Source of the DNA: a virus
Direction: 5' to 3' (one strand)
Virus genome (UHGV): UHGV-0033546
Length of the DNA stretch: 64,000 nucleotides
Below are positions 34,891 to 56,418 of this stretch, in pieces; positions within the stretch are counted from its first letter, which is position 1; each line of letters begins with the position of its first letter. Under the pieces are notes generated by a model, which searched no databases, had not been told where the DNA came from, and saw only the letters and a program-made list of their open reading frames with translations. A program made the translations under genes and the position numbers.

Positions 34891-35194
34891 TTTCTTCTCG
34901 GTTAAATCGGTGTTTGCAATGACGGCATTTATAACGAAGAATACTAGTCTGCCAATGAATTAATTGAACCTGTTCAGTACCGCATTCAGGACAATTAGGA
35001 ACGTTTTTAGAAGCCCTTTCACGACGTTCAACCATAACCATAATAGCATCCCAGGCTGGAGGTTTAAAATCTAAATCATCACAACCATGAATCTTTCCAC
35101 GCATTTCCAGATCGTCTTCTTCACCCGCTATAATAATTTTAATTAGACTGGAATTACTTGAAGCTGCAATATCTTCTAATAGACGCTTTTTCAT
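34877..35194 (-). CDS. hypothetical zinc-ribbon protein
   Basis: 105 aa; CPECG...CRHCKH. Confidence 0.5.
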
Positions 35195-36117
35195 TTCAAT
35201 ACCTCAATAGCATTACGTAAACCATTTGCTTTGGTGGTTAAAGCCTTAAGAACTTTGGTATGCTCTTCAATTTGTTTTTCAACTTCAATCAAACGAGCAT
35301 TGAGATATTCGCGTTCTTCTTTCATAGTATCATTCCCATGATTGAATTTTGGCGTAGGTTTAAATTCGCTGGGGTCCTTTAACTTAATAACAAATTTAGT
35401 TTCAAACAGTGAAAGACCATAATTCGTATTATCATCAAAGGATTCAACTACATCCATATTAGATAATAACTCACGCAAATTATAAGCCAAAGAACTAATA
35501 GTTTCATTGTGTTTATTAGCTTCGCGCGGTTTCATATACGGAAGATTTTTATATATCTCGTGCGGAGCACAAACAATAATTGACAATTCAAATTGTCCAT
35601 TCTGGGATGATGGAGTGAATTTAGCAGTAACCCAGTCTTTTACATTCACATTAATAGTACGGTTATCACCATGACAAAACAGTCTACGAGAATGCTTAAA
35701 AAGCATATTAACGTTCTCATTAAATTCACTTGAAAACTCACTAGCGAATTTTTCTTTACTATTTTTAGAAAACCATTCTTCTAAATAAGTTCTTTTCACG
35801 TCATTAATAATATTAAATGTAACAACACTAGCATTTGATATATTAGTCTCAATGTAGCTCGGATACATAAATTTTTTAACATTATTAACAGCTATCACAG
35901 AAGATAGTAATCGGGAACGTTTGAACCACTCGAGCAAAGAACCAAGAGAATGTGAATACGCATTTTGTGTATCTTTACAAATATGGTTTTCCCATCCAAT
36001 ATAGTCTAAAAAATCACGAAGAATATTATTGATTACTGCTCTGTGTCCTATCTGATAATTACGATGTTTAGTAATAAGACTGTCAAAATAATCAATATAA
36101 TGTTTACGAGTTTTCAT
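35191..36117 (-). CDS. hypothetical protein, paralog family member 1 (C-terminal coiled coil)
   Basis: 308 aa; N-terminus MKTRKHY; heptad-rich C-terminus. Confidence 0.55.
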   Translation of the reverse strand: MKTRKHYIDYFDSLITKHRNYQIGHRAVINNILRDFLDYIGWENHICKDTQNAYSHSLGSLLEWFKRSRLLSSVIAVNNVKKFMYPSYIETNISNASVVTFNIINDVKRTYLEEWFSKNSKEKFASEFSSEFNENVNMLFKHSRRLFCHGDNRTINVNVKDWVTAKFTPSSQNGQFELSIIVCAPHEIYKNLPYMKPREANKHNETISSLAYNLRELLSNMDVVESFDDNTNYGLSLFETKFVIKLKDPSEFKPTPKFNHGNDTMKEEREYLNARLIEVEKQIEEHTKVLKALTTKANGLRNAIEVLK

Positions 36118-36169
36118 ATTCTTCTCACTTGGTTAATGATTTATGCTCCAAGCCATCCTTGGCTTTAAA

Positions 36170-37171
36170 TTACTTAATTAACTGTAAAGCTTGTTCAAGA
36201 CGATCCAGGCGATTAACAGATTCTTCCCAAATCCTTTTAGCCTGTTCATATTCTTTTTGCGCTTTATTAGAAATTTCTAGAACTTCTTTATAAGCTTTTT
36301 CTAGTGCAATAACTTCTGGACGAATTTCTACTGGTTCAGGCGAATCGTCAAGATTATCCATTAGTTCCTCAAGGGTAGTTTCTTCTTTAGGAGTATTCAC
36401 AATTTCATCACATTTTTGTTGGTAAATTTCTTTATCAGTCGGTGAATACGCACACTTTACTTCACGAAGACTAACTACAATTTTATATCCTTCCCAACCG
36501 CACATATTCTTAAAAGGATAAGTATGAATATTTTCTACTGTTTCCATACATCCAAAAGCTGTCTCTAATTGATGAGTTATAGTGCTAGCAATTGAGAAAA
36601 ATTTATTAATATTCTTTTGGTTAGCTTCTGGTGTAAAAAATTCATAATTCACAAAAATAGCTACTTTATTTTTATCAAGCTCGTATTCTTTTACGATAAT
36701 CATATCAGAAGCTAAAGGATGAATTTGACGATAATCGCCATAGCATAATTTAGAAGCGGATTTTATAATTTGCTTCTTGAAAAGTCTGAAATTACTAACC
36801 CAACGACGAGTAAAAATATTCTCAGGGTCTTCTTTATTATTAAGATGATAAGAATTAACATCACCGAACCAATTATATCCTACTACATTTTTAGTTCGTT
36901 TAATTTCTTTCCCAAATTTACCAAAAATATCCCGATTAACCAAATATGAAAGAAGACGAGACCCTTTAAAGGTTTCCTTAATATCATCTTTATCTGTATG
37001 ACTAGAAATTTTACGAACTTCATGAATAAATTTACTTGAAGAAACAATACTTACATCAGTATTATTGAGCCACTGATTGATAATAGAAAGAACACTATTC
37101 TGACTAGACATAGGTTTAACTTTATCATCAATAACGCTATTGAATGATTTGATATATTCGTTACGAGTCAT
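36170..37171 (-). CDS. hypothetical protein, paralog family member 2
   Basis: 333 aa from ATG 37171 (GAGGAG SD; MTRNEY...); shares QLxxAFxxM motif with member 3. Confidence 0.55.
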   Translation of the reverse strand: MTRNEYIKSFNSVIDDKVKPMSSQNSVLSIINQWLNNTDVSIVSSSKFIHEVRKISSHTDKDDIKETFKGSRLLSYLVNRDIFGKFGKEIKRTKNVVGYNWFGDVNSYHLNNKEDPENIFTRRWVSNFRLFKKQIIKSASKLCYGDYRQIHPLASDMIIVKEYELDKNKVAIFVNYEFFTPEANQKNINKFFSIASTITHQLETAFGCMETVENIHTYPFKNMCGWEGYKIVVSLREVKCAYSPTDKEIYQQKCDEIVNTPKEETTLEELMDNLDDSPEPVEIRPEVIALEKAYKEVLEISNKAQKEYEQAKRIWEESVNRLDRLEQALQLIK

Positions 37172-37228
37172 ATTAATCTCCTCAGTAGAAAGTAAGAACA
37201 TTATACCACATCCTTGTGGCAAAGTAAA

Positions 37229-38233
37229 CTAGTTTAGTGCATTTAGTGCATTGTTCAGTTTAGAACGTTGTTTTGTCAGATTTTGAACCCTTGACTGTGC
37301 TTGTTCTAACACCTTTTCAGCTTCTAACATTTCATTAGTTGCTTTAACTAATTCATCATCTACTGCTTTAAGAGACTTCTCAATCGCATCGGCGTGCCAT
37401 TTTTCTACAGGTTTAAAATTTGAATTTTCAGTAGGAAGAAAACTCACTTTATTAAGTTTACATGCATCTATGTTACTTGAACTATACATCCAGCATTTAG
37501 GATCGTTTGATGAACAGTTAGTTTGGGGTTCAGGTTTTTTCTCTTGCGGGACTTCGTCCTTTCTCAAAAAATCGTATTTAAATGAAACGATCATATCAAG
37601 TTCATATGTTGTTGTGTCTAATTTAAATCGCTCAAAACGAGGTAAAATCTTAGACTGAACAGCGGCAACAACATCCATATACTTAAATGCTTCTGTCAAC
37701 TGTGATTTAAGGCATTCACAAATTGAAAGAGAATTTTTTGTATTAGGTTTAAAGCTAATTCGTGCAGTTCTATTATTTTCTTTTAATGGTCTTACTTCCA
37801 TCTGAAGAGTATAACCATCAAATTTCAGATTCTTTAAGTTAATATCAGAACCTTTTAATCGACTAGCTGTGGACAAAATTTGTTTTAGTTGTGTACGGAA
37901 TAGAGCAATAAATCTCCATTCAATACGATAATGATTTGGATTGAAAAATCCAGATGATAAATCAACCTTACTCTGACCAACACCTTGAACAAATAGAGGA
38001 TTTTTATAATCAATAGTTTTACAGAAATCGGTGAGCTGCTCACGAGCAGTCATTTGTGTAATATACCCCGCTTTACTAAAATGACGTAACCATTCACTGC
38101 TATTCATATATTTAAAGTGAATATCATGATTAACTTTATCAGGGTCTAAATTATTTTGACACAAAAATGTCATAACATCACGAGTATAGCTGGCATTACG
38201 AACCATATCTTCAATTTGAGAACGAGTTTTCAT
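37229..38233 (-). CDS. hypothetical protein, paralog family member 3
   Basis: 334 aa; MKTRSQ... N-terminus; coiled-coil C-terminus. Confidence 0.55.
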   Translation of the reverse strand: MKTRSQIEDMVRNASYTRDVMTFLCQNNLDPDKVNHDIHFKYMNSSEWLRHFSKAGYITQMTAREQLTDFCKTIDYKNPLFVQGVGQSKVDLSSGFFNPNHYRIEWRFIALFRTQLKQILSTASRLKGSDINLKNLKFDGYTLQMEVRPLKENNRTARISFKPNTKNSLSICECLKSQLTEAFKYMDVVAAVQSKILPRFERFKLDTTTYELDMIVSFKYDFLRKDEVPQEKKPEPQTNCSSNDPKCWMYSSSNIDACKLNKVSFLPTENSNFKPVEKWHADAIEKSLKAVDDELVKATNEMLEAEKVLEQAQSRVQNLTKQRSKLNNALNALN

Positions 38234-38241
38234 GGTGTTCC

Positions 38242-38847
38242 TTAAGATTTAAGTAAATCAACAATTTTAATTAACTTTTCACGCTCAGATTTAGCTTTAC
38301 TACTCAATCCAGATAGTCTGAAAATTTCATCATCATATTGTTGAATAGAAATATTCAGTTCTTCAATCTGTTTATTAAAATAATCAATTTGTTCAGAGTG
38401 TTTTTCGTTACTACGAACTGGTACGGGTTTCGTAGGCAATTTAGTTGAACTAGATTCATCCGGGCGATAAATTAAAATACAACTTGAACCAATTGGGCAT
38501 TTTGCACCAGATGAATATTCCAATGTTCCAGATTCTTTTAAAACTTCAAAAGCTAAACAGAGATGATGCCCCATATTAACATAATCTGTAGAGCGAGCTC
38601 TGATGTAATAATCATCGCCACGAATACTAAATTTAAAGCATTTAAGGTCTTCTGTATTATTGGTCTTAAAAATCATTTGCTTATCTAGACCTTTAGCTAA
38701 TCGAGCGCCTAATGCTAATAATCGTCGCTGATTTTCCCACAAATCCGCAATCATTTGATCGAATGACAATTTCGGCATCAGTCGACCATAAAGATCATAG
38801 CCTTTATTATAATTACGAAGGATTTCACTCGCGTTAATACGAGACAA
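38242..38847 (-). CDS. hypothetical protein, paralog family member 4 (shorter)
   Basis: 201 aa; MSRINASE... N-terminus; N-terminal 70 nt overlap upstream ORF. Confidence 0.5.
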   Translation of the reverse strand: MSRINASEILRNYNKGYDLYGRLMPKLSFDQMIADLWENQRRLLALGARLAKGLDKQMIFKTNNTEDLKCFKFSIRGDDYYIRARSTDYVNMGHHLCLAFEVLKESGTLEYSSGAKCPIGSSCILIYRPDESSSTKLPTKPVPVRSNEKHSEQIDYFNKQIEELNISIQQYDDEIFRLSGLSSKAKSEREKLIKIVDLLKS

Positions 38848-39128
38848 TGCTCCAATTTATTAAGGGCTTTCATAATGCGATTAGATAAACCCATTCCAGA
38901 CCCATTTGTTCGCTGCAAATGTTTTTCTAATCCAAATCCAATATCAACTTTAAACTTATCTAAAATTTCTGCATGAACATCTCTGTCAATAACATTCAAA
39001 TCCAAAGTTGGGTTAAATCTATGAAAAAATTTATCTGGCTCTCCACGACGAAGTACAGTCCATTCATTCAATTTTTTATTAACTAAAGATTTAATTACTG
39101 CATTGACATTATTAATCACTACTGGCAT
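38778..39128 (-). CDS. hypothetical protein
   Basis: 116 aa from ATG 39128 (GAGGAAA SD). Confidence 0.45.
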   Translation of the reverse strand: MPVVINNVNAVIKSLVNKKLNEWTVLRRGEPDKFFHRFNPTLDLNVIDRDVHAEILDKFKVDIGFGLEKHLQRTNGSGMGLSNRIMKALNKLEHCLVLTRVKSFVIIIKAMIFMVD

Positions 39129-39135
39129 ATTTTCC

Positions 39136-39543
39136 TCACTCAATTTCAATTTTACTAAATACATAGAATATGATTGAACAGACTACATAAGCGCCACACA
39201 CAGATTGAACTAATACCATTCCAAAGAACCAAACAATATTATCAAACAGTGTCTGTTTTACGTCGAAAGGACGTAAACTTACAGTAATATTATCGCCTTT
39301 TTCTATTGATGAATACATCTCTGGTGAAATATATTCGCTAAATCTATAACCGTCTTTTAGTTCATATATGGCAATAAACGATAAACTAGACCCCTTTCCT
39401 TGTGTTCCTGTAATGGTATTAACTACAGTAACATCATAATCTTTATAATGCATATAATCATTAATAGCATAATAACCATATGCAATCGCTATACATAAAC
39501 AACATATCAATAAATTCAATCTTTTAATTATCAACTGTTTCAT
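39136..39543 (-). CDS. hypothetical membrane protein
   Basis: 135 aa with N- and C-terminal TM segments. Confidence 0.5.
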   Translation of the reverse strand: MKQLIIKRLNLLICCLCIAIAYGYYAINDYMHYKDYDVTVVNTITGTQGKGSSLSFIAIYELKDGYRFSEYISPEMYSSIEKGDNITVSLRPFDVKQTLFDNIVWFFGMVLVQSVCGAYVVCSIIFYVFSKIEIE

Positions 39544-39598
39544 AATAATCTCAATTAAAAGGGCTTAGAACCATTATACCATCCTTGGTATAAAGCGG

Positions 39599-40126
39599 TT
39601 ATGCGAGTACCGTCTTTAACCGTTCTTCAAACTTCCGAAGAGTATTTTGGCGTTCAGCTCTTTGCTTTTTGTAAGTTTCAATACGCTCTGAAATGAGAGT
39701 GTATCGTTCATTTACTGATTCTTTCATAAAATCAGGAATTTCACGAGAAGCTTTAATCTCGTCAAATTTATCAATAACAGCTTGCTCTTCAGCAATTAAA
39801 TTATCATACATTAAAATATCTTTCTTGATGAACTCAATATCTTCTTGAGTTACACGAGATAATTTAGATGCTTTATCCTTTTTGTACTGTTCGTTAGTAT
39901 CACGAGACCAGTGTAATGTACGATTTTTATTCGTATTTTTGTAAATTTCTACAATACCAATCTCATCAATAATAACGATCCAATTCCAACGTGATTTGTA
40001 AATTTGTCCTCCATCAACAGTGATTTCACCTCCGATTGAGATGTCATTAAAGAACTTGCTTTGTGCTTCAGATTTAAATTTACCATCATTGTAATTTACC
40101 AAGTTGAAAATATCTTTAGCGTTCAT
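39599..40126 (-). CDS. hypothetical protein with C-terminal coiled coil
   Basis: 175-aa ORF(-) just downstream of early promoter. Confidence 0.5.
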   Translation of the reverse strand: MNAKDIFNLVNYNDGKFKSEAQSKFFNDISIGGEITVDGGQIYKSRWNWIVIIDEIGIVEIYKNTNKNRTLHWSRDTNEQYKKDKASKLSRVTQEDIEFIKKDILMYDNLIAEEQAVIDKFDEIKASREIPDFMKESVNERYTLISERIETYKKQRAERQNTLRKFEERLKTVLA

Positions 40127-40154: not shown

Positions 40155-40184
40155 ATAGTACCACAGAGGAACAGTCTTGTAAAC
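40155..40184 (-). promoter_or_regulatory. T4-type early promoter
   Basis: minus strand GTTTACA, 18 nt, TGG-TACTAT. Confidence 0.55.
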
Positions 40185-40590: not shown

Positions 40591-41577
40591 TTATTTCAGA
40601 AGAGTAACCTCAGCGATTTCTTCCCAACCGTTTTTGTCGGTCATAATAAAGTCAGCAAGATAAAGAGCAGTACGCAGTGAAACATTGCGTAAACGATTAA
40701 CATTAACTTTCATCCATGATAATGCTTTATAAGTTTCTTCATCAGAAAGACCGCGCTTTTGCATCATGTCAGTTGAAAGAATAACATCTTCAACCCTGAC
40801 CATAATTTCTTCATTAGTGTGAACACCCAAATCTAAATAAACCGAGCGGGACACTAATGCTTGTAAATGTGGAGCAAGTTTAGTACCACGGTCTAATTCG
40901 CGGTCAATGTCAACGTTTGTGATAAAAACAATCGTTCCTTTAAATTCAAACTCACGCTCAATGCCTTTTTCTTCTAAGTAAGAAGACGCAGTGCTCCAGC
41001 AGACTTTACGGGTCTCTCCAGTGTCCAGAGCAGCTTTTAGAAGATTAAGAATGTCCATATCAGAGAAAACATCCACATCATCAATCAAAAGGACAGAATT
41101 CTCTTCACGATTATTCCAAAGCTGCTCATAAAGACCAATACCAGAGATTTTACCATTAATGCTTTTATATTCAATGTATCCAATATCATTTGCTTTATTT
41201 AAAGCTTTATCTAAAGAATACGTTTTACCAATACCTGCCGCTCCTGAGATAATTAATGAACGAATATTTCCGTTAATAATACCATTCGTCATCATTCCCA
41301 TAACATTAAATCTTTTATTAATGCGGGTTTTCATATCTTCATATGATTCTTTAACTTCTTCAACTTTTACACCATCATATGAAATATCTGATTTGTAAAC
41401 CCAAACACCGCGACGCTTACCGTCAATTTCAACAAAAACTTTACCATCTCCTTGTGCATCTACCGGAGCATTATCTGGGAACCATTCGCCTAAGAGCTCA
41501 AAAGTTCCAGAGATTTCTTTACCGAAGTAGATACCCTTATTGATAGTTACAGTTTTCATTTTATTCTCCAATTTCAC
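40591..41577 (-). CDS. P-loop (AAA+-like) ATPase
   Basis: 328 aa; Walker A GAAGIGKT, Walker B VLLIDDVD after a 100-aa N-terminal domain. Confidence 0.65.
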   Translation of the reverse strand: MKLENKMKTVTINKGIYFGKEISGTFELLGEWFPDNAPVDAQGDGKVFVEIDGKRRGVWVYKSDISYDGVKVEEVKESYEDMKTRINKRFNVMGMMTNGIINGNIRSLIISGAAGIGKTYSLDKALNKANDIGYIEYKSINGKISGIGLYEQLWNNREENSVLLIDDVDVFSDMDILNLLKAALDTGETRKVCWSTASSYLEEKGIEREFEFKGTIVFITNVDIDRELDRGTKLAPHLQALVSRSVYLDLGVHTNEEIMVRVEDVILSTDMMQKRGLSDEETYKALSWMKVNVNRLRNVSLRTALYLADFIMTDKNGWEEIAEVTLLK

Positions 41578-41595: not shown

Positions 41596-41625
41596 ATAGT
41601 ATCACACTACTACCCTACTGTAAAC
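41596..41625 (-). promoter_or_regulatory. T4-type early promoter
   Basis: minus strand GTTTACA, 18 nt, TACTAT. Confidence 0.55.
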
Positions 41626-42074: not shown

Positions 42075-42104
42075 ATAGTACTACAAAGCTCTATGCTTGT
42101 AAAC
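42075..42104 (-). promoter_or_regulatory. T4-type early promoter
   Basis: minus strand GTTTACA, 18 nt, TACTAT. Confidence 0.55.
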
Positions 42105-42128: not shown

Positions 42129-42152
42129 AAAAAAGGGAGCCCGAAGGCTCCC
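42129..42152 (-). terminator. intrinsic terminator (CUUCGG hairpin + T-run)
   Basis: GGGAGCC-UUCG-GGCUCCC followed by T6 on minus strand. Confidence 0.6.
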
Positions 42153-42154
42153 TA

Positions 42155-43168
42155 TCATTTATAATAACTTCGATGGTTTTCAAGATAGACCTTCTCAAGG
42201 AAGTCATCCCAGAAACTCATGTCTACTTTTTGCTGCATACCGTTCTTAGAAGCTTCAGTAGATGCTGCTTCTACTTGATCGACCACATCTTCCAAAAACT
42301 CTTGGACTGTTTTAAATGGATGTTTACCCAACTTCACGTCGAGAATAAATGGAGCGTCTTGAAGTGGATAGACTAAGTCACCAGTTTTGTAAATTTCCAA
42401 TAGTTGAAGTCCACCACGACAAGCATGACTCAGAGCTTTCCAATCAATGCCCTCATTCGCTTCAGCCTTACGAGCACGTTCACCGTATTCAGCATCTAGT
42501 TTGTTCAAAGATTGCTTAAGCTCAATAAGAGAAAGTGTTGTCTGATATTTGCGACCCAACACAGTGTAGAACGTTTGTGGACCTGTTTTCTCATGATTAT
42601 GGAATACCCATTCACAAAATTCGTTCTCTGGAAGACGATGCTTAATATCTTCAATTTTAACGCGACGTTGTCCTTGTGTTCCATCTTCTCGGTAGACATT
42701 CCGTTGATCAGGAATTTGATTAATTACTTTCAACACATCACGTAATGCAGCCAAACGAGAACCTTTAACACCATATTTAGAAGCTTGCTTACGAACATAT
42801 CCTAAATAGGACTTCATGTTGGTTGTATAAAAACGAGAACGGTTGTCTTGAATAAACTTCCACACATCAGGCAAATCAGATTTAACCACTAGTTCAGGTG
42901 GAGTGTGAAGCATATCTAATGCGACAGTTTCGCCATCTGCTGCTAATTTAAAGAAATACTTAAGACTGTATAGTTCATGGTCAATATCATCTTTAGTGTT
43001 TTTAGATGATGTATTGTTAGTGTTTTTACTCATGTGCTCTTTGACATTTCCGATAAGAATATCACGAGCAGGAGGAACAAAAATTTCTTTAAAATCTACA
43101 TCAGATTCTGGGGTAGAAGTTCCATAAAGATGACTACCAAAATAGCTTTTCATTACTGTTTTCATCAT
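42155..43168 (-). CDS. predicted nucleotidyltransferase (Pol-beta superfamily)
   Basis: 337 aa; N-terminal GSHLYGTSTPESDVDF (GS...DxD) at residues 11-26. Confidence 0.6.
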   Translation of the reverse strand: MMKTVMKSYFGSHLYGTSTPESDVDFKEIFVPPARDILIGNVKEHMSKNTNNTSSKNTKDDIDHELYSLKYFFKLAADGETVALDMLHTPPELVVKSDLPDVWKFIQDNRSRFYTTNMKSYLGYVRKQASKYGVKGSRLAALRDVLKVINQIPDQRNVYREDGTQGQRRVKIEDIKHRLPENEFCEWVFHNHEKTGPQTFYTVLGRKYQTTLSLIELKQSLNKLDAEYGERARKAEANEGIDWKALSHACRGGLQLLEIYKTGDLVYPLQDAPFILDVKLGKHPFKTVQEFLEDVVDQVEAASTEASKNGMQQKVDMSFWDDFLEKVYLENHRSYYK

Positions 43169-55824: not shown

Positions 55825-56418
55825 TTATTTCAGAGAATTAATGTATTCCTGAACATCGGCAGAGGTAGTTTCAACCCCAGAAATATTACCGTTAAAGGTT
55901 TCAACTCGAGCAAGGGTATCTTCAATATCAACCTTAGTCAGTGCTGCAATTTCAACTACATCATCGGCAGTACTAATTCCAAGGGCATTTGCTGCACGAG
56001 TTTCACGGATATATTCCAATTTAACCGCAAGTTCTTGACGAGCATCATCTAACTCAACTACTTTCTTGGCGATTTCAATTCGCATTTCAGCATAACCGTC
56101 AGCCTTAGTAGTCAACTGCTCAGCTGTTCGACGATATAGTAAACCGAGTTTAGCATGCATTGTTACATCTTGACCTTCGGAAAGAAGTTTACGAATTTCA
56201 CGCTCTTTTGATTCGGCCTGTCGATTCTTTTCGATAACAAGTTCACGAATACGTTTTTCTTCGTTAATAGATTTAATAGAAGCAGTTTTTAGATCTTTAA
56301 TTTTATCAAGTAGTTTTGCTGCTGCAGCAGTATACTGTTCTTCGACAGATAGATTTTTAGCCATAGCAGAACCAAGTTTAGTGCGAATAAACTCAACAAT
56401 TTTCTTCAGTGTGTTCAT
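55825..56418 (-). CDS. coiled-coil protein, possible PspA/IM30-like
   Basis: 197 aa predicted all-helical; architecture resembles PspA; weak evidence. Confidence 0.45.

Follow-up and report, generated by a model that had tools for sequence, protein, structure and literature searches.

Tandem paralogs among the nrdC.x genes of a T4-like phage, a probable segment of an early anti-defence island

The window analysed here is a whole stretch of 64 kb from the virus genome UHGV-0033546 and represents a Tequatrovirus, a T4-like phage, carrying T4 endonuclease VII, the NrdC thioredoxin and the genes after nrdC as markers. Our subject is an array of genes in it, nrdC.3 to nrdC.8, so named from annotated relatives and all on the minus strand (Table 1). 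The 4.9-kb array stretch is matched by 699 phage records, the best of which is Tequatrovirus KMB42 with 95% DNA identity. A preliminary description of the sequence had proposed four to five tandem paralogs here, with variable N-terminal domains, coiled-coil C-termini and rapid evolution. Its five open reading frames (ORFs) are indeed present on the minus strand, but its fourth member was mis-delimited, being the second piece of a longer nrdC.6.

The nrdC.3 and nrdC.5 products are 91% and 90% identical in amino acids to T4 NrdC.3 and T4 NrdC.5, the latter at the same position. The nrdC.4 coordinates agree with the T4 annotation of 1002 nt, and a GAGGA ribosome-binding site is seen by eye upstream. 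In nrdC.8, the first ~75 residues are strand-rich and the C-terminal half is helical, both judged by eye.

Table 1. Positions of the array genes, their parts and nearby sites in the window.
Feature	Coordinates	Strand	Description
nrdC.3	35191..36117	-	308 aa, family A, opens MKTRKHY; heptad helix at ~residues 270-308 (35194-35310)
nrdC.4	36170..37171	-	333 aa, family A, opens MTRNEY; heptad helix at ~residues 286-330
Promoter-like site	37200..37228	-	TTTACT-17-TATAAT with TG, in the nrdC.5/nrdC.4 gap; consensus scan
nrdC.5	37229..38233	-	334 aa, family B; low-confidence N-terminus 1-53, core residues 54-226 (37556-38074), disordered linker 227-275, C-terminal helix 276-334 (37232-37408)
nrdC.6	38242..39164	-	Family C; intact gene 295 aa, interrupted in the window
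nrdC.6, second piece	38242-38847	-	201-aa ORF of the preliminary description
nrdC.6, N-terminal piece	38778-39164	-	128-aa ORF
Frameshift site in nrdC.6	38856..38859	-	1-nt deletion, AATAAAATT -> AATAAATT
nrdC.7	39136..39543	-	135 aa, both ends hydrophobic (by eye); predicted membrane protein in the T4 annotation
nrdC.8	39599..40126	-	175 aa, family D, phrog_2274; heptads at 136-175
Promoter-like site	40155..40183	-	TTTACA-17-TACTAT with TG, in the nrdC.9/nrdC.8 gap; consensus scan

We collected the array from the four genera Tequatrovirus, Mosigvirus, Dhakavirus and Gaprivervirus, and the proteins sort into four groups, namely A of the nrdC.4 type, B for nrdC.5, C for nrdC.6 and D for nrdC.8. 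The order of nrdC.8, nrdC.6, nrdC.5 and an A-type gene is kept across all four. They do not carry equal numbers of the A-type gene, which is duplicated into nrdC.3 and nrdC.4 in Tequatrovirus only.

The nrdC.3 and nrdC.4 proteins are related even by BLASTP, with 24.5% identity over 269 amino acids, and no other array pair is significant by BLASTP among the window proteins. Plain pairwise alignment supports this one link, and the others proposed by the preliminary description need profiles or structures. Both proteins match the whole 334-position profile of phrog_1435 (E 4e-99 for nrdC.3 and 5.7e-165 for nrdC.4). The two are also assigned to one Pfam family, PF26897 Phage_T4_Y04OP, whose precomputed label stands on the A-type gene of L033 and on P0057, which carries the C-terminal part of nrdC.3. 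The nrdC.5 protein belongs to Pfam PF23882 DUF7235 (NrdC.5 / Y05A), scoring 362.1 bits over model positions 1-307 at a gathering threshold of 30 bits, while nrdC.3 is no member, scoring 13.3 bits on its C-terminal helix, below that threshold.

The profile-profile alignment by hhalign joins the A and B families. With the larger alignments, it gives 95.1% probability and E 3.4e-8 over 262 collinear columns that reach the C-terminus. The first run gave 81% and E 1.2e-5, and the reversed control gives E 0.33. The preliminary description had noticed a common motif, QLETAF..M or QLTEAF..M, and it falls in the aligned columns. Moreover, nearly every nrdC.3/nrdC.4-type and nrdC.5-type protein of the four genera opens with M(K)TR-x-(E/H/Q)-(Y/I/L). 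As judged from their sequences, nrdC.3, nrdC.4 and nrdC.5 are paralogs, homologous end to end.

The nrdC.6 family is linked more faintly. Its profile aligns in the same region and order with A (25%, E 7.8e-4), with B (11%, E 2.9e-3) and with A and B combined (54.5%, E 1.2e-4), and the reversed-C controls give E 0.09 and 0.3 with B and with A and B combined. The B-C alignment, although not significant, has five blocks in order, which are a G-x-(L/I)-(S/T)-(R/Q)-x-x-A helix, a helix end of A-(S/A)-(R/K)-L...G-x-D, an L-x-x-A-(F/L) helix that holds the QLETAF/QLTEAF motif, a P-(V/I) segment ahead of the tail, and L-x-x-(A/I)-(L/I/V)-x-x-L-K at the very end. The nrdC.6-type proteins of the four genera lack the M(K)TR opening.

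Structures were predicted as AlphaFold2 monomers for nrdC.5 and for P0156, an intact homologue of nrdC.6, and compared by element order. The mean predicted local distance difference test (pLDDT) values are 69 for nrdC.5, where most 10-residue blocks of the core reach 72-92, and 76 for P0156. The N-terminal part is of low confidence in nrdC.5 (residues 10-52) and helical in P0156. It is followed, with the nrdC.5 residues given before those of P0156, by a helix pair (104-114, 116-126; 123-132, 134-146), a first hairpin (143-148, 156-161; 166-170, 173-177), a helix (168-184; 186-200), a second hairpin (189-200, 208-218; 204-211, 214-221), a linker with pLDDT <50 (227-274; 227-241) and a single long terminal helix (276-333; 242-294). 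The order of the secondary-structure elements is identical in the two models.

Both models were also searched by Foldseek against BFVD and match the same uncharacterised T4-like proteins of ~310-326 amino acids with probability 1.0. They are those of PM2 (A0A0A0PZG4, E 1e-5 for the nrdC.5 model and 2e-6 for the nrdC.6 model), fHe-Yen9-01 (A0A1V0DXL6, 1.7e-5 and 1.7e-4) and Mineola (A0A2Z4QAR2, 4e-7 and 4e-4). Because of the same predicted order of elements, the common Foldseek matches and the weak collinear profile matches, nrdC.6 is probably a remote fourth member. The tandem family thus comprises nrdC.3, nrdC.4 and nrdC.5 at the sequence level, with nrdC.6 as a probable distant relative.

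The fifth gene, nrdC.8, is not demonstrably one of them. Its profile gives no hhalign signal, with E 0.06-0.16 against B and C, 0.03 against A and up to 0.35 across runs, and the protein lacks the M(K)TR opening and differs in length. It shares only the helical, heptad-rich tail with nrdC.3-nrdC.6. The paralogy and the similar N-terminal openings of the preliminary description hold at the sequence level for nrdC.3, nrdC.4 and nrdC.5, and its tentative fifth member, nrdC.8, has no demonstrable paralogy.

The heptad-rich C-termini of the preliminary description are found in all five genes. We called the tails by a home-made score of at least 0.80, a crude rather than calibrated predictor, and it marks 39-57 C-terminal residues in nrdC.3, nrdC.4, nrdC.5, nrdC.6 and nrdC.8, two of which (nrdC.5 and nrdC.6) have the long terminal helix in the models. 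The scan finds no tail in nrdC.1, nrdC.2, nrdC.7 and nrdC.9, and outside the array just one further ORF of ~100 in the window has such a segment. Five of the six heptad-positive ORFs thus lie within seven consecutive ORFs, for which our own hypergeometric estimate gives a chance of ~2e-4. The sixth (55825-56418) encodes a protein of 197 amino acids in phrog_1203, helical by eye, in which no relationship to the array was seen.

The final residues of families A, B and C fit the pattern L-x-x-(A/I)-(L/I/V)-x-x-L-K, and the extreme C-terminus is the best-conserved block between genera. When the C-terminal 60 residues alone are aligned, A and B match in register (E 7e-4) and neither C nor D gives a significant link. 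Because only the A and B tails align in register, the tails alone are no proof of common descent.

Pfam and NCBIfam scans of the array yield no functional domain, and the weak matches to Cas6b_C, prefoldin, SNARE and DUF4164 were set aside as helix or composition noise. A sequence-profile search of the PDB returns nothing below E 0.03 for nrdC.5 and nrdC.6, and for nrdC.8 only a weak lysozyme match (E 0.003) and coiled-coil-type matches.

More distant T4-like phages, KPV15, Acj61, KMB19 and Moon (L026-L029), carry one to three proteins of ~260-336 amino acids in the nrdC.10-nrdC interval, several with similar helical tails. KMB19_332 joins family C (E 3.5e-7), and the other proteins of these four phages give weak suggestive matches only. 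A 175-aa protein of KPV15 has an A/B-type motif, L..AL.HMDVV. These proteins may be further remote members of the family.

The array genes evolve at very different rates. Identity to the other genera is 22-27% for nrdC.5, 34-55% for nrdC.6 and 42-55% for nrdC.3 and nrdC.4 with their closest counterparts, against 68-84% for nrdC.8, 78-79% for nrdC.10, 84-90% for nrdC and 83-90% for endonuclease VII. Within Tequatrovirus, the ratio of nonsynonymous to synonymous substitution rates (dN/dS) is 0.12-0.41 for nrdC.3, nrdC.4 and nrdC.5, and 0-0.10 for nrdC.10, and it does not exceed 0.06 in nrdC.8, nrdC and endonuclease VII. It is 0.01-0.06 for nrdC.6, except for 0.17 against the aberrant T4 reference copy. 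Thus, nrdC.3-nrdC.5 diverge several-fold faster than the flanking genes, and the rapid evolution claimed for the whole array does not extend to nrdC.6 and nrdC.8 (0.00-0.06 apart from that T4 value).

The variation is localized. In the nrdC.5 alleles, the variable columns cluster in residues 10-60, ~190-210 and the linker. What varies in nrdC.5 is then the N-terminal ~50 residues together with one β-hairpin and the linker, and the variable N-terminal domain of the preliminary description is not supported as a whole.

The nrdC.3 gene varies in another manner. Two allele classes exist in Tequatrovirus, one of ~140 records with at least 90% identity and the other of ~294 records with 60-80%. Both ends are identical between the classes and the middle is 25-60% identical (35191-36117; L005:8137-9066; L008:4970-5920). 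Along most of this middle part, the second class matches the Mosigvirus gene with 80-95% identity. This mosaic allele replacement looks like a core-domain swap between genera.

The window copy of nrdC.6 is a disrupted member of PHROG 2257 / PF26899. Alignment of the DNA to KMB42 locates a 1-nt deletion in an A-run at ~38856-38859, which splits the 295-aa gene into overlapping ORFs of 128 and 201 amino acids. The 201-aa ORF matches only positions 86-303 of phrog_2257 (E 2.5e-108), and intact homologues carry PF26899 Phage_T4_Y05B. Because the deletion breaks the frame, the opening MSRINAS that had been likened to those of the other proteins is an internal TTG and no start codon. The true opening is MSVVINN.

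The deletion is absent from all 367 phage records that match a 141-nt stretch around it, the best of which has 97.2% over a 142-nt target. It must then be a mutation private to this genome or a sequencing error in the homopolymer. A programmed frameshift was considered and rejected, as the frame is intact in all other records. The T4 reference NC_000866 has its own aberrant nrdC.6 (L007:10067-10894), of 275 amino acids with the C-terminus ELIFLFNNMMMKFSDYLD and no helical tail, and the T4D annotation in the HIDEN-SEQ supplement gives the gene 891 nt. Either the strains differ here or the reference has an old sequencing error.

Other members are broken elsewhere. A split nrdC.4, with one ORF of 193 and another of 158 amino acids, is found in the IMG/VR genome UViG_2974742932 (L003:7054-8086, L011:9948-10980). 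On a 167-kb contig, P0057 is a chimeric ORF that joins the nrdC.5 middle to the nrdC.3 C-terminal half at a short NKVN/NVNM similarity, and nrdC.4 is deleted. Decay of the array members is frequent, through independent frameshifts and fusion.

Functions have been reported for two of the genes. A T4 deletion mutant plates again on cells with Dsr1 of ECOR17 when T4 nrdC.5 is expressed there (Srikant et al. 2022, PMC9391042). Dsr1 is a sirtuin that depletes nicotinamide adenine dinucleotide (NAD), and its sensor recognises the major capsid protein (PMC13581612). The window nrdC.5 is the orthologue of T4 NrdC.5 by its same position and full-length DUF7235 match, and an anti-Dsr1 role of the window allele would be assigned by orthology. 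The two alleles differ mainly in residues 10-60, ~190-210 and the linker.

The other function is that of bas37_0203 in phage KarlGJung, which is reported to inhibit Druantia type III (HIDEN-SEQ preprint 10.1101/2025.11.20.689424). Its insertion mutants are depleted on strain CFE303 with a log2 fold change of -5.80, and the mutants of its neighbours are not depleted (10.1101/2025.11.20.689424). Bas37_0203 and the window nrdC.8 are identical at 174 of 175 residues, and bas37_0203 sits between the nrdC.7 and nrdC.9 orthologues in the HIDEN-SEQ annotation table and the GenBank record, the same location as nrdC.8. Unlike the fast-evolving genes of the array, nrdC.8 is strongly conserved. The same preprint identifies nrdC.1 as a Septu inhibitor and maps all nrdC.x genes as non-essential in the laboratory host by transposons (10.1101/2025.11.20.689424). 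The gp49.2 product is an OLD inhibitor according to another paper.

We therefore favour, at roughly two chances in three, that nrdC.3-nrdC.8 are a segment of a T4-like early-gene anti-defence island in which the paralogs each neutralise a different host immune protein. The published nrdC.5/Dsr1 and nrdC.8 orthologue/Druantia III experiments fit the host-interaction role that the preliminary description had read from this accessory region. Since one copy, nrdC.5, and a neighbour, nrdC.8, are reported to switch off immunity, the remaining copies are good inhibitor candidates. For nrdC.3, nrdC.4 and nrdC.6, we infer the anti-defence role.

The proposed course is as follows. One ancestral gene would have given rise to nrdC.3, nrdC.4, nrdC.5 and probably nrdC.6 by tandem duplication. 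The common plan would begin with a short opening, conserved in nrdC.3, nrdC.4 and nrdC.5, and an N-terminal segment that varies, followed by an α/β core of two helices, β-hairpin, helix and β-hairpin, a disordered linker, and a predicted amphipathic helix of 40-58 residues that runs to the C-terminus. The nrdC.8 protein would resemble these in its helical tail and have a body unrelated to theirs.

Each protein would most likely be cytoplasmic, non-essential and made early in infection, and would presumably bind a different host immune protein directly and neutralise it. The core and the variable loops would set the specificity, and the terminal helix may form an oligomer, adding avidity for oligomeric sensors. 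Duplication and core exchange would then create new specificities.

A sharper version is that nrdC.3-nrdC.6 form a diversifying family of modular immune antagonists, with a conserved scaffold, an oligomerising helix and exchangeable core surfaces, in which each paralog or allele class disarms a different sensor. We put it forward tentatively, with the odds slightly on the doubtful side.

Several points weigh against the anti-defence account and its common plan. An HMMER search with the nrdC.5-family profile against 1.84 billion representatives returned 12 matches, all of the nrdC.5 type, with no cellular homologues and no A- or C-type protein. As these matches are all of one type, the nrdC.5 family is confined to the T-even phages, and only profile-profile alignment reveals its link to A. 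The nrdC.6 link is weak at the sequence level (probabilities of 11-55%), and as no homology is detectable for nrdC.8, convergence may account for the shared tail. The coiled-coil call comes from the crude heptad score and the helices of monomer AlphaFold2 models, and oligomerisation is a prediction.

The genetic evidence adds to these points. In the part of the Bas37 data available to us, insertions in the orthologues of nrdC.3-nrdC.6 have no significant effect on CFT073, CFE299 and CFE303 (10.1101/2025.11.20.689424). No phenotype for nrdC.3, nrdC.4 and nrdC.6 was found in the literature naming these genes. Moreover, nrdC.6 is conserved in the genus (dN/dS 0.01-0.06) yet broken here, which fits a dispensable rather than a strongly selected gene.

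One alternative is that nrdC.3, nrdC.4 and nrdC.6 serve host takeover or physiology without any relation to immunity, for example in host nucleic-acid or envelope processes, and that only nrdC.5 was recruited to counter-defence. The literature naming these three genes reports no defence-related phenotype for them, the available Bas37 data show no effect on the three clinical strains, and a gene-wide dN/dS of 0.12-0.41 means purifying selection overall. However, nrdC.3 and nrdC.4, and probably nrdC.6, are homologous to a demonstrated anti-Dsr1 protein, and the three genes have four reported anti-defence genes around them, are dispensable in the laboratory, and show the allele replacement and divergence pattern typical of host-range genes. 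We regard this alternative as unlikely, although well worth keeping in mind.

Another alternative is that the proteins are subunits of one hetero-oligomeric assembly held by their C-terminal helices and act jointly, not as independent inhibitors. All five end in an amphipathic helix, A, B and C share the terminal L-x-x-(A/I)-(L/I/V)-x-x-L-K, no block is better conserved between genera than the extreme C-terminus, and the genes are co-oriented and closely spaced. But nrdC.5 alone on a plasmid restores the T4 deletion mutant on Dsr1 cells, and the CFE303 phenotype comes from Bas37_0203 insertions alone and not from those in the neighbours. These single-gene activities argue against an obligate complex. 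Natural isolates also lose or break single members with the others kept, and the A-type copy number differs between genera, making joint action quite improbable.

That all these genes are unrelated neighbours, each having gained a heptad-rich helical tail in a gene-dense accessory region, is very improbable. It is favoured by the separate Pfam families of nrdC.5, nrdC.6 and nrdC.8, the single BLASTP pair, the nrdC.5 profile finding no A-type or C-type protein and the missing profile signal of nrdC.8. Against it are the 262 collinear A-B columns at E 3.4e-8 with a clean reversed control, the N-terminal motif common to A and B, the element order and Foldseek targets shared by nrdC.5 and nrdC.6, and the adjacency of five of the six tail-bearing ORFs in 64 kb. 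For nrdC.8 alone, such a convergent tail is the leading reading.

Two known systems resemble the anti-defence paralogs as favoured here. DSAD1 of SPbeta-like phages, a DSR2 inhibitor, is a functional analogue that blocks a SIR2-type NADase sensing a structural protein. DSR2 senses the tail tube and Dsr1 the major capsid protein. The genes of the T-even internal proteins are likewise small, non-essential and fast-diverging and stand in clusters, each gene acting against a different host defence, and the proteins join a variable body to a terminal signal that is conserved. However, their packaging depends on an N-terminal capsid-targeting sequence, which is missing from the nrdC array. The array has a conserved C-terminal helix instead, and three or four of its members are true paralogs.

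The surroundings of the array were also surveyed. The promoter-like site in the nrdC.5/nrdC.4 gap is a possible early promoter for nrdC.4-nrdC.3, and that in the nrdC.9/nrdC.8 gap is one for nrdC.8 through nrdC.5. Both are pattern matches, and the total count in the consensus scan is not above that of shuffled sequences. The TTTACA-17-TACTAT pair recurs in three coding-strand intergenic gaps (40155-40183, 41596-41624, 42075-42103), with the upstream TG in two of the three. A strong hairpin with a T-run lies directly after nrdC.11 (42134-42153).

The nrdC.7 gene is inside the array but is no family member and has no heptad tail. In Mosigvirus JS09, its homologue (L008:4252-4665) adjoins nrdC and is not between nrdC.6 and nrdC.8, so its location within the array is not conserved. 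Beyond the array, nrdC.10, the first of the pair at 40591-41577 and 42155-43168, is an AAA/STAND-like NTPase with relatives reaching Vibrio, Aeromonas and jumbo phages. The second, nrdC.11 (42155-43168), is a RlaP-type nucleotidyltransferase with 51-82% identity out to Acinetobacter phage Acj61. The array between nrdC.10/nrdC.11 and nrdC is restricted to a few T-even genera.

In GenBank relatives, nrdC.1 to nrdC.11 are often labelled 'thioredoxin' and gp49.2 'ribonucleotide reductase'. Pfam/NCBIfam-type domain scans detect no thioredoxin or ribonucleotide reductase domain behind those labels. Because neither domain is detected, both labels appear inherited from the gene names, and our analysis corrects the widespread 'thioredoxin' label on the nrdC.x genes.

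The genes, the two functions and the relationship of nrdC.3 with nrdC.4 were already known. The link of nrdC.5 to both, the probable inclusion of nrdC.6 and the shared architecture are new, none being mentioned in the papers found to name these genes. T-even phages are the main model of counter-defence, but a function is still to be assigned to the majority of their accessory genes. Here, the family relationship turns three 'hypothetical' genes into specific inhibitor candidates that can be tested, and the plan of core, linker and terminal helix offers a guide for mutagenesis.

The two nrdC.3 allele classes, differing only in the central domain, provide a natural experiment on specificity. If the modular family is real, nrdC.3, nrdC.4 and nrdC.6 would each be an undiscovered inhibitor, and T-even phages could change their host range by swapping core domains between genera.

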